A stretch of 4,372 bases of DNA from a virus (Duplodnaviria > Heunggongvirae > Uroviricota > Caudoviricetes): the IMG/VR virus record IMGVR_UViG_2778261454_000004; one strand, given 5' to 3'. Shown one piece after another: positions 874 through 3,940 of this stretch (the first letter of the stretch is position 1; the number at the start of each line of letters is the position of its first letter). Position numbers and translations under genes: made by a program. The notes beneath the pieces were generated by a model. It searched no databases and had not been told where the DNA came from. It worked only from the letters and a program-made list of their open reading frames with translations.

Positions 874-1901
<1,028 letters not shown>

Positions 1902-2151
1902 GGTAATATTAAATCGGAACATTTACATCGCGGAATGTAAAATTTAAATAAAAAGGACTCTTCCATGAGCCAAAATTCCTGAAATCTTAAGGGTAAGATA
2001 AAAGGTCTTAATCAGAATGACACGTTTTATTAATAAATAAAGCTATTCTTTCATTGCTGTGTTTTTCTTTACAAAAGTAATCCTTGCTATGGGTGGTTAA
2101 TCATGCGTTAATGGTGTTCTGGTTTGTTACAAATTTATCTGAAGCAGTCAT

Positions 2152-2160
2152 TGTTATAAT
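2152..2160 (+). promoter_or_regulatory. Candidate extended -10 promoter element (TGtTATAAT) for cspI
   Basis: Perfect TATAAT at 2155-2160 preceded by TG at 2152-2153, inside an AT-rich block. It would give a leader of about 95 nt before cspI. A second candidate (TTGCTA 2084-2089, 18-bp spacer, GTTAAT 2108-2113) would give a longer leader. No experimental support. Confidence 0.4.
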
Positions 2161-2262
2161 TTTATTATTTGTACCTCTTGAGATTTCCTTGTTGGTTTTT
2201 CTCTCTGATATTTTTTTCGGACCATTCTGCCCAAGGGCTAATTTCTTCAAAAGGTAATAATT

Positions 2263-2475
2263 ATGTCTAACAAAATGACTGGTTTAGTGAAATGGTTTAA
2301 CCCTGAAAAAGGTTTTGGTTTCATCACGCCGAAAGATGGCAGCAAAGATGTGTTTGTCCATTTCTCAGCAATTCAGAGCAACGATTTCAAAACATTAACT
2401 GAGAATCAGGAAGTTGAATTTGGTATTGAGAACGGACCTAAAGGTCCTGCCGCTGTTCATGTAGTGGCGCTTTGA
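2263..2475 (+). CDS. cspI: Cold-shock protein of the CspA family (CspI), 70 aa
   Basis: Translation [70 protein letters not shown] carries the cold-shock-domain RNP1 (KGFGFI) and RNP2 (VFVHF) motifs. The AAGGTAATAATT-ATG initiation region resembles that of cspA. Preceded by a long AT-rich leader. Confidence 0.93.
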
Positions 2476-2563
2476 GGTAGACAATATTACAAACCATATT
2501 CACTTTAGATGCCCGTGTTGTCATGGTTCCCAGTATAGAACATCATCTTTTGATGTTTCTGAC

Positions 2564-2674
2564 ATGAATCCTTTCGGGGCAAAATGTATCTTTTGTAAAT
2601 CAATGATGATTACATTTGATAATATTTCACAATACTTAAATGCCAGCCGTCTGTCGTTGGATTTAAAAAAGTGA
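2564..2674 (+). CDS. Possible small zinc-ribbon-like ORF or gene remnant; only the ATG-initiated 36-aa part is annotated
   Basis: The frame is open from 2465 to stop 2672-2674 and reads ...CPCCHGSQYRTSSFDVSDMNPFGAKCIFCKSMMITFDNISQYLNASRLSLDLKK, i.e. two Cys pairs (CPCC and CIFC) about 22 residues apart. No ATG, GTG or TTG lies upstream of ATG 2564 in this frame, so the first Cys pair has no canonical start. Below the length cut-off of the ORF track. Confidence 0.25.
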   Translation: MNPFGAKCIFCKSMMITFDNISQYLNASRLSLDLKK

Positions 2675-2679
2675 AAATG

Positions 2680-2702
2680 AAGGCTCCTTCGGGAGCTTTT
2701 TT
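2680..2702 (+). terminator. Intrinsic terminator: GC-rich hairpin with UUCG tetraloop followed by a T-run
   Basis: Stem AAGGCTCC (2680-2687), loop TTCG (2688-2691), stem GGAGCTTT (2692-2699) with one G-U pair, then TTTTTTG; six T at 2697-2702. Lies about 200 nt after the cspI stop and before ynfN. Confidence 0.75.
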
Positions 2703-2820
2703 GCTTGGTGTCTATTCGATGGATACTCACATACTACGGTAACATCATGAAAAAAATCATAGTTTTTTTAACTCTGAACCAGCAGTGGTAGTGCCAGCGA
2801 TGACTGGAGTTAACACCATC

Positions 2821-2976
2821 ATGCGTGAATATCCAAATGGCGAAAAAACACACCTTACTGTAATGGCCGCAGGGTTTCCATCTCTGACCGGAGATCATAA
2901 AGTCATTTATGTAGCCGCGGATCGACATGTTACTTCAGAAGAAATTCTGGAAGCAGCAATAAGGCTCTTGAGTTGA
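2821..2976 (+). CDS. ynfN: YnfN-like small protein, 51 aa (alternative start ATG 2800 gives 58 aa)
   Basis: Translation MREYPNGEKTHLTVMAAGFPSLTGDHKVIYVAADRHVTSEEILEAAIRLLS. Length and position (between cspI and gnsB) match my recollection of the Qin-prophage cold-shock-induced gene ynfN. GGAG at 2806-2809 is 11 nt upstream of ATG 2821. Start choice is not verified. Confidence 0.6.
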   Translation: MREYPNGEKTHLTVMAAGFPSLTGDHKVIYVAADRHVTSEEILEAAIRLLS

Positions 2977-3093
2977 TTTGATGCTATTGCATTGATAATT
3001 CAGGAAAATTCTCTTTGTCTGTTTGTGTAAAATTTAGACTATCGTATGTTGATTATTGCGATGTTTCATCTTATCTTTTACACGTTTGCACCA

Positions 3094-3099
3094 TATAAT
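3094..3099 (+). promoter_or_regulatory. Candidate -10 hexamer (TATAAT) for gnsB
   Basis: Perfect TATAAT at 3094-3099, about 48 nt upstream of the gnsB start. The -35 is weak: TTATCT at 17-bp spacing, or TTTACA at only 11 bp. Confidence 0.3.
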
Positions 3100-3147
3100 C
3101 GACTTACTGTGTAACTGGAAAGTCATAACAGACTAAAAGAGGAAATG

Positions 3148-3321
3148 ATGAATATTGAAAACTTAAAAACAAAAGCAGAAGCAGATATTTCTGAATATAT
3201 AACAAAAAAAATTATTGAACTTAAGAAAAAGACCGGGAAAGAAGTTACCAGTATTCAGTTTACCGCACGGGAAAAAATGACGGGTCTTGAAAGCTATGAT
3301 GTCAAGATTAATTTAATCTGA
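3148..3321 (+). CDS. gnsB: GnsB (GnsA/GnsB family small protein), 57 aa
   Basis: Translation MNIENLKTKAEADISEYITKKIIELKKKTGKEVTSIQFTAREKMTGLESYDVKINLI closely resembles the GnsA/GnsB sequences I recall (MNIEELKK...TGKEVSEIRFTAREKMTGLESYDVKIKIM). AGAGGA at 3137-3142 is 5 nt upstream of ATG 3148. An additional in-frame ATG at 3145 would add one Met. Confidence 0.85.
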   Translation: MNIENLKTKAEADISEYITKKIIELKKKTGKEVTSIQFTAREKMTGLESYDVKINLI

Positions 3322-3347
3322 TGTATTCAATAATAAAATTTATCCAT

Positions 3348-3370
3348 AAACCTCGTTTTTACGGGGTTTT
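3348..3370 (+). terminator. Probable intrinsic terminator downstream of gnsB
   Basis: AAACCTCGT (3348-3356), loop TTTT, ACGGGG (3361-3366), then TTTTGTT. The stem has one G-U pair and is followed by a T-run. Confidence 0.5.
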
Positions 3371-3435
3371 GTTATATTTGAATGGTTCCGAATATCTAAA
3401 TCACAATTGTTGATGGTTTTTATTAAACCAATGCA

Positions 3436-3464
3436 GTCCGGCTCAGGAGTGAGAGAAGCCGGAC
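3436..3464 (-). terminator. Hairpin just downstream of the ydfO-like gene (minus strand); possible weak terminator
   Basis: Perfect 8-bp inverted repeat GTCCGGCT (3436-3443) / AGCCGGAC (3457-3464) with a 13-nt loop, starting 9 nt after the minus-strand stop. The following minus-strand sequence (TGCATTGGTTTAAT) is only moderately T-rich. Confidence 0.35.
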
Positions 3465-3472
3465 GTTATGGT

Positions 3473-3883
3473 TTAGCGTGGTAAGATCTGTGTAGTTTTC
3501 TGGATGCTTTCAGTAAATAGTAATGAATTATCAAAGGCATAGTAATATCTTTTTTGTTCGTGGATATTTGTAACCCACCGAAAAACTCCTGCTTTAGCAA
3601 GGTTTCTTCTGTATTCCTGAAATGTGATCTCTCTGGATTTCAGCTTATTAGAGGTCGTTTCTATAAGATGCCTATCCTTTGAAAATTTGACAGACACAAT
3701 GTTTTTTAGGCCCTTTAATAACACTGTATTATCATTTTTTAATACAATATGAACATTCTCTGTGGCTAAATAGTAAATGTAATGTGAGACATTGTGACGT
3801 TTTAGCTCAGAATAAAACCATTGATAGTTTAAATCGTTTCGAACTTTATCAAATATTTGTTTAAAAATGACTACCTGATCCAT
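3473..3883 (-). CDS. ydfO: YdfO/YbcV-like protein, DUF1398 family, 136 aa, function unknown
   Basis: Translation from [47 protein letters not shown]... matches the prophage YdfO/YbcV family as I recall it. Start set at ATG 3883 because GGAAGG lies 7 nt upstream on the minus strand; the listed ORF start at 3898 has no Shine-Dalgarno. Confidence 0.75.
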
Positions 3884-3940
3884 AGATAAACCTTCCATGT
3901 GATATGAGGGGGCGTAGTCTGCACGATTATCTAAATTGCT

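Follow-up and report, generated by a model that had tools for sequence, protein, structure and literature searches.

Between the stop codon of the spanin gene rzpQ and the ATG of cspI in a lambdoid prophage of E. coli lies an unusually AT-rich spacer, and it raises the question of what this DNA does: whether it carries the promoter of cspI, specifies a regulatory RNA, or is acquired filler. A sequence-only reading of the locus had pointed to an extended -10 element (TGtTATAAT) as the cspI promoter and to a second promoter-like pair (TTGCTA/GTTAAT), and had proposed that the entire 360 bp are probably cold-sensing regulatory RNA rather than spacer, with an AT-richness typical of H-NS targets. 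Here we analysed the spacer within the window, that is, the whole 4,372-nt stretch of DNA taken from the virus record IMGVR_UViG_2778261454_000004. All positions are those of the window.

Genomic context of the cspI spacer

The window was identified from its open reading frame (ORF) list and by comparison with annotated E. coli genomes, and it is the late lysis and moron region of a Qin-type lambdoid prophage of E. coli (Table 1). The flanking gene order matches that of Qin in K-12, where cspI (b1552) has rzpQ upstream and ynfQ/ymcF, ynfR, ynfN and gnsB downstream. The window prophage differs from K-12 in carrying IS1 upstream of the holin gene. What is seen of this IS1 is its insA end, read on the minus strand, with a boundary about 60 bp upstream of the holin gene; the IS1-holin junction was covered in 3 of 5426 complete E. 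coli genomes, at 95-98% identity.

Table 1. Coordinates of the genes and control features in the window. Allele differences refer to the comparison of the K-12/window allele with the mEp460/O91 allele.
Feature	Position	Strand	Remarks
IS1 end	1 to about 226
Holin gene essD/essQ	284-499
ydfR	504-818
Lysozyme gene rrrQ	874-1407
Spanin gene rzpQ	1404-1901		stop codon 1899-1901
Spanin gene rzoQ	1597-1851		embedded in rzpQ
rzpQ-cspI spacer	1902-2262		361 nt, from the rzpQ stop to the cspI ATG (2263)
Distal spacer	1902-2060	.	29.6% GC; poorly conserved; 18/159 allele differences (11.3%)
Promoter region	2061-2118		1/58 allele differences (1.7%)
A/T-rich tract in UP-element position	2061-2083	+	directly upstream of the -35 hexamer; 0 allele differences
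-35 hexamer TTGCTA	2084-2089	+	TTGC invariant in cspA, cspB, cspG and cspI
Extended -10 element TGcGTTAAT	2104-2112	+	TGn at 2104-2105; GTTAAT at 2107-2112, 17 bp from TTGCTA
Putative transcription start	C2119	+	placed to within 1 nt
cspI 5′ untranslated leader	2119-2262	+	144 nt, 46% U; putative cold-sensing regulatory RNA; 4/144 allele differences (2.8%)
Cold-box region	2121-2133	+	invariant GGTTTG, then mini-palindrome TTTGTTACAAA
Leader strand of the long-range leader:CDS helix	2139-2156	+	CUGAA, CAGUCAU(U), UGUUA; MFE prediction
TGtTATAAT, letters TGTTATAAT	2152-2160	+	leader positions +34 to +42; 33 nt past the start
Predicted anti-Shine-Dalgarno UACCU	2172-2176	+	predicted to pair with AGGUA 2252-2256
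T-run	2211-2217	+	T7 here, T8 in K-12 and the mEp460 allele; predicted apical loop
Small conserved hairpin GCCCAAGGGC	2229-2238	+	GCCGAAAGGC in cspA, cspB and cspG
Shine-Dalgarno AAGG	2251-2254	+	8 nt before the ATG; direct sequence reading
cspI CDS	2263-2475	+	70 aa; 8/213 allele differences (3.8%)
Codons 2-10	2268-2293	+	3′ strand of the predicted closing helix; includes downstream-box region AATGACTGG (2274-2282)
ymcF/ynfQ-like gene	2486-2674	+
ynfR-like gene	2677-2742	+
GC-rich hairpin GGCTCCTTCGGGAGC, then T6	2682-2702	+	sequence reading; the scan lists the other strand
ynfN and gnsB	downstream of the ynfR-like gene
ydfO-like and ynfO-like genes	3′ part of the listed order	opposite strand

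The spacer was found in 2142 of the 5426 complete genomes (about 39%). Together with cspI it is also present in the isolated phages mEp460, 2H10, HannyBb, Tritos, PhiR42_1 and PhiR63_1, and in mEp460 it lies directly 3′ of the lysis cassette. In strain NT1N31 (NZ_CP075480.1) a 574-bp query made of the spacer and cspI gave two matching pieces, both 100% identical, that are spread over 1351 bp. An IS1 transposase is annotated between them, which places an IS1 insertion somewhere in 1902-2475. The copy of strain HS-01 lacks 4 nt of the leader (CGG and an adjacent base) beside the T-run, and its cspI and rzpQ are annotated as frameshifted pseudogenes, reflecting either decay of the cassette or an assembly error.

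Downstream of cspI, the ymcF/ynfQ-like frame for a 'cold shock small protein' has 62 codons and begins 10 nt past the cspI stop. Its start codon is ATT and not ATG, GTG or TTG, so that it was missed by the ORF list; the product, which is annotated in RefSeq, has two Cys pairs (CPCC...CIFC). The ynfR-like frame has 21 codons (MKAPSGAFLLGVYSMDTHILR) and overlaps the GC-rich hairpin of Table 1. Judged by its sequence, this hairpin with its T6 tract probably serves as an intrinsic terminator for the cspI-ymcF(ynfQ) transcript. A strong terminator-like hairpin of 9 pairs, followed by a T-run, was also seen at 3348-3369 (+), directly past gnsB.

Composition and conservation of the spacer

At 31.0%, the GC content of the spacer is below that of the lysis genes at 284-1901 (47.3%) and that of the window as a whole (41.1%). 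Its AT-richness and all of the motifs named in the sequence-only reading were confirmed. The next 1.4 kb (2476-3900) are also low in GC (34.5%), so AT-richness marks the whole cspI-ymcF-ynfN-gnsB-ydfO moron block and not the spacer alone.

Compared with the rzpQ-cspI spacer of K-12 MG1655, the spacer is identical but for one T in the T-run. For an estimate of constraint we used the second natural allele, mEp460/O91, and compared it with the K-12/window allele. The differences are distributed unevenly (Fisher p = 8e-4): of the 202 positions in promoter and leader together (2061-2262) 5 differ, compared with 18 of 159 in the distal spacer, and these proximal 202 nt are better conserved than the cspI coding sequence itself. 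Excess structure was absent in 1902-2105, where the fold did not stand out from those of shuffles (z = -0.14). From its 5′ end, the spacer comprises an unconstrained stretch (159 nt), the promoter (58 nt) and the leader (144 nt). The proposal that all of it is regulatory RNA fails for 1902-2060, in which neither conservation nor structure was found.

The scan listed no plus-strand terminator in the spacer, and for this reason late transcription of the phage would presumably continue across it into cspI. In the distal half, on the minus strand, a match to the Hfq-binding sRNA rseX (2036-1948) extended over the full length of the Rfam model at a sub-threshold 25.8 bits (gathering score 50), with an E value of 0.2-0.4 even in a tiny search space. 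It has the blocks GTGTCAT and CCTTTTATC in common with K-12 rseX and ends at a terminator-like hairpin with a T-run (1971-1956), the stem of which is made perfect by C1970T in the mEp460 allele. We saw no promoter and no annotation for this match, and it is located in the less conserved part of the spacer; it is probably due to chance.

The cspI promoter and its transcription start

When the control regions of K-12 cspA, cspB and cspG were aligned with that of cspI, one common layout emerged: a -35 hexamer TTGC(T/A)(T/A) followed by TG-n-(G/C)TTAAT, a start two nt ahead of the invariant GGTTTG, a GCCnAAnGGC hairpin, then AAGG, the ATG and the AAAATGACTGG downstream-box region. In the cspI spacer GTTAAT occurs twice, at 2096-2101 and 2107-2112, and it is the latter copy that is preceded by TGn. 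cspB, cspG and cspI have the same -10 region, ATGCGTTAAT, of which cspA shares TG..TTAAT; a TGn motif has been reported for the cspA, cspB, cspG and cspI promoters in a published source. The gap from TGcGTTAAT to C2119 is 6 nt, the TG stands at -15/-14 with one base between it and the -10 hexamer, and the TGn motif, the -35 hexamer and the spacing to the start are all as expected. On this alignment, the working cspI promoter is TTGCTA, a 17-bp spacing and TGcGTTAAT, a promoter of the extended -10 type. The pair TTGCTA/GTTAAT had been rated only as a second promoter; it is present as described, but it is the working promoter and has a TGn of its own.

A simple sigma-70 scan gave 0 sites in the spacer (5 in the whole window vs. 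9.9 in shuffles). It missed the working promoter because no more than 8 of the 12 hexamer positions match. Ahead of the -35 hexamer, AAAAGTAAT within 2061-2083 aligns with AAAA(T/G)TAA(T/A) of cspA, cspB and cspG (invariant columns A35-A41), and by analogy with what is known of cspA the tract may act as an UP element.

The length of the K-12 cspI 5′UTR is given as 145 bases by two papers that cite Wang, Yamanaka & Inouye (1999). Allowing for the one T that is missing here, this length leads to a start at C2119 and a leader of 144 nt. By alignment, C2119 is the counterpart of the +1 of cspA, which likewise lies two nt ahead of GGTTTG, and the Rfam cspA model has its position 1 next to C2119, at 2118. 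The start is thus put at C2119 on the length quoted by two secondary sources together with homology, both of which point to the same place.

H-NS binding and the promoter island

Among the 78 'promoter islands' listed by Panyukov & Ozoline (2013; PMC3661553) is the cspI/ydfP intergenic region of K-12 (entry 1636643_433, U00096.2), which by approximate transfer maps to about 1880-2311 of the window. It is bound by H-NS in all three ChIP-chip data sets used there (Grainger, Kahramanoglou and Oshima; PMC3661553), in agreement with the suggestion that this region is an H-NS target. The sequence itself favours H-NS binding only by its low GC (31%), as the H-NS consensus TCGATAAATT was not enriched (8 matches vs. 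8.06 expected). Promoter islands are dense in promoter-like signals, and most of them are transcriptionally silent and covered by H-NS (PMC3661553); the cspI island differs from most in having a working, cold-inducible promoter.

Such a setting invites the view that the spacer is horizontally acquired AT-rich filler, silenced by H-NS and with no RNA-level function of its own. The published H-NS binding, a GC content as low as that of the adjacent moron genes and a distal half that is unconstrained and unstructured would all follow from it. The proximal 202 nt, however, are conserved beyond the cspI coding sequence and align block by block with the control regions of cspA, cspB and cspG, and the leader is more structured than shuffles and has published thermometer behaviour. 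As an account of the whole spacer we consider filler very improbable: it is contradicted for 2061-2262, and we accept it for 1902-2060.

The TGtTATAAT motif lies within the leader

The motif proposed as the cspI promoter, TGtTATAAT, lies inside the leader, downstream of the start given above. It is a perfect match to the extended -10 consensus, and promoters of this kind need no -35 hexamer. One can therefore ask whether it is a working extended -10 element, as the main or as a second, internal promoter, which would start transcription at about 2167. The leader would then be about 96 nt long; it would retain the anti-Shine-Dalgarno but have neither the cold box nor the closing helix's 5′ strand. 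By sequence alone TGtTATAAT surpasses the upstream promoter with its 8/12 match, which the scan did not list; it is kept in both the E. coli and the phage alleles, and the region is a published promoter island (PMC3661553). Yet the authors of that study call promoter islands silent and H-NS-covered, and the 145-nt UTR, in the form quoted by the citing papers, fits the upstream promoter and not TGtTATAAT.

The occurrence of the motif also speaks against such a role. The pattern TGNTATAAT was found once in the window vs. 0.24 expected, and 46 of 200 dinucleotide shuffles (23%) contained it at least once; this is no more than chance would give. Nothing like it stands at the aligned position in cspA, cspB and cspG, where the sequence is unrelated. 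Among cspI-like leaders, those of Scandinavium (two), Pluralibacter and Enterobacter are without it, and that of Citrobacter carries TGAAATAAT in its place. These leaders were collected by a pattern scan of species-representative genomes for this promoter type; most of what it gave were chance matches outside Enterobacterales, and a csp gene lay downstream in 20 of 120 loci. Conservation of TGtTATAAT between the E. coli and phage alleles does not exceed that of the rest of the leader. Altogether, we regard a working promoter at TGtTATAAT as unlikely.

Folding of the RNA offers a simpler reason for these bases, as they belong to a leader strand predicted to pair with the start of the coding sequence. 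In the minimum free energy (MFE) structure of the leader with the CDS, UGUUA 2152-2156 pairs with UAACA 2268-2272, and in the 10 °C optimum UAUAAUU 2155-2161 pairs with AAUUAUG 2259-2265. In this model TGtTATAAT would be transcribed RNA on the strand predicted to face the CDS start, and not a promoter. A latent internal promoter, silenced by H-NS or occluded by the upstream promoter, is in our judgement decidedly unlikely. If it existed, the same nine bases would be both a DNA promoter and an RNA structural strand, and the leader of about 96 nt would leave the partner strand in the coding region unpaired, opening a cold-independent route to CspI synthesis; it might also bear on the induction of cspI, ynfQ and ynfN by replication stress (PMC11228462).

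Sequence and predicted fold of the cspI leader

At the position of TTTGTTACAAA in the cspI cold box, cspA has a GGUUUG...CAGACC hairpin. GGTTTG is present in cspI, but the CAGACC arm is absent from cspI and the cspI-like leaders; cspI has instead a mini-hairpin of 4 bp (UUUG-UUA-CAAA) as well as CGGACC (2218-2223), a distal complement. A distal complement of GGUUUG with the form C(A/G)(A/G)(A/G)CC was observed 41-52 nt before the AUG in 17 of 22 cspA-family leaders, and the variants CGGACC, CAGACC, CAAACC, CAAGCC and CAGGCC all preserve pairing with GGUUUG. The cspI-type leaders have the distal partner only, without a local CAGACC, whereas those of the cspA type have the local arm and an imperfect distal one.

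The leader and the first 60 nt of the CDS were predicted to form one long stem-loop of -45.7 kcal/mol (z = -2.80), and 2 of 200 shuffles folded as well. In this thermodynamic prediction the leader at about 2133-2156 pairs with 2268-2293, the Shine-Dalgarno (SD) sequence has a paired probability of 0.75, and CAGUCAU(U) 2145-2152 faces (A)AUGACUG 2274-2281 in the MFE structure. cspB, one cspG-like leader and the cspI-like leader of Citrobacter were predicted to have the same architecture. The long stem-loop also matches the DMS-MaPseq description published for cspB, cspG and cspI.

Equilibrium folding did not reproduce a temperature switch, as the SD was not freed at 10 °C. Since it stays paired in these folds, the cold form is presumably a kinetic, co-transcriptional one. 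Covariation gave no support for the predicted helices: RNAalifold yielded, for 7 cspI-like sequences, a weak consensus of -15 kcal/mol with a covariation term of -1.2, which did not recover the long-range helix of the single sequence, although pairs 129-138 of the small hairpin are kept in 6-7 of the 7 sequences. Between the two E. coli alleles there are 3 leader substitutions and no compensatory pair. Two of the three (2134 and 2242) would break predicted pairs, and the sole indel in the leader, the T-run, lies in the apical loop.

A leader of this length could also encode a small peptide, either from the plus-strand ORF 2169-2270 or from the minus-strand ORF 2101-2250, the second of which is annotated as a hypothetical protein in phage mEp460_ev081. 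Both frames do exist, but both have a TTG start and no Shine-Dalgarno sequence, and the T7/T8 difference at 2211-2217 shifts the frame of either, so that the products differ between alleles. In none of the 25 RefSeq records listed is any feature annotated under the spacer. A peptide-coding role of the leader is, in our opinion, extremely improbable.

Relation to the cspA family and cold response

The Rfam model of the cspA thermoregulator (RF01766) matched 2118-2502 (+) with 114.2 bits and an E value of 1.3e-29. The match is above the gathering score of 78 and spans model positions 1-428 of 428, although the coding part contributes much of the 114 bits and many non-canonical pairs occur in the alignment of the cspI leader. 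With the sequence ahead of the coding region alone (1902-2262) there was no RF01766 match at E<=10, which fits the published remark that the cspI leader 'diverges' (Borovska et al. 2025).

Besides this end-to-end match, cspI has in common with cspA the TGn promoter, the 5′ GGUUUG, the GCCnAAnGGC hairpin, an SD in AAGGUAAU context and the downstream box. Its leader is 15 nt shorter than that of cspA, and the CAGACC arm is replaced by UUUGUUACAAA. The leaders of cspB and cspG measure 161 and 156 nt. In cspB, cspG and cspI a leader motif C(U/A)AAAGCAG faces AUGACUGGUUUAG of the CDS in the predicted long stem-loop, and all three have been described as changing register between 37 °C and 10 °C (Borovska et al. 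2025). The mid-leader sequence of cspI, in contrast, is unrelated to that of cspB and cspG, and TGtTATAAT is specific to cspI.

Borovska et al. (2025) used DMS-MaPseq to probe transcripts of cspB, cspG and cspI that had been synthesised at 37 °C and at 10 °C. The cspI 5′UTR was found to be a protein-independent RNA thermometer, in which the site of ribosome binding (RBS) is hidden along with the AUG at 37 °C; at 10 °C a register-shifted, shorter stem-loop within the 5′UTR frees both (Borovska et al. 2025). The idea of a long cold-sensing leader therefore stands as far as the 144-nt leader, with its published thermometer behaviour, is concerned, but not for 360 bp, as only 2119-2262 is transcribed from the cspI promoter. 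A start next to the ATG and a lack of temperature dependence, which together would have refuted the first reading, are contradicted by the literature. The UTR reportedly lowers cspI expression at 37 °C, the cspI mRNA is said to be unstable at 37 °C and stabilised in the cold, and induction of CspI is reportedly limited to about 15-10 °C.

Discussion

The spacer very probably holds the native control region of cspI, that is, a promoter with its start at about C2119 and a thermosensing leader. A sigma-70 promoter with weak hexamers, helped by TGn at 2104-2105 and by the A/T tract at 2061-2083, would direct transcription from about C2119 and produce a U-rich leader of 144 nt. At 37 °C the full mRNA would fold into one long stem-loop, with the leader at about 2133-2156 on codons 2-10 and UACCU 2172-2176 on the Shine-Dalgarno sequence; translation would be poor and the mRNA short-lived. 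In the cold (15 °C and below) the register would shift to a shorter fold within the 5′UTR that leaves the RBS and AUG free; the mRNA would be stabilised and CspI made. The part at 1902-2060 would be an unconstrained AT-rich spacer, coated by H-NS together with the rest of the region in K-12, and in intact phages of the Qin type late transcription would read through it.

A response of another kind has been described for this locus: cspI, ynfQ and ynfN are induced 6-fold by AZT replication stress (PMC11228462). The induction needs LexA cleavage and SspA, and there is no LexA box (PMC11228462). This would be a non-cold regulation of the cspI promoter region.

The spacer finding is real, ordinary and already described, and its first interpretation was partly right. 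The cspI promoter, the 145-nt leader, cold induction and thermometer behaviour have all been published for a sequence that differs by one T. The relevance of the present analysis is therefore little beyond correct annotation. It illustrates that a perfect TGnTATAAT in AT-rich, H-NS-bound DNA of horizontal origin can arise as a side effect of composition and of constraints on RNA structure, and that a real promoter with poor hexamers can show up only in its conservation among paralogues. The spacer and cspI travel as a moron cassette in intact lambdoid phages, among them mEp460, 2H10 and Tritos.
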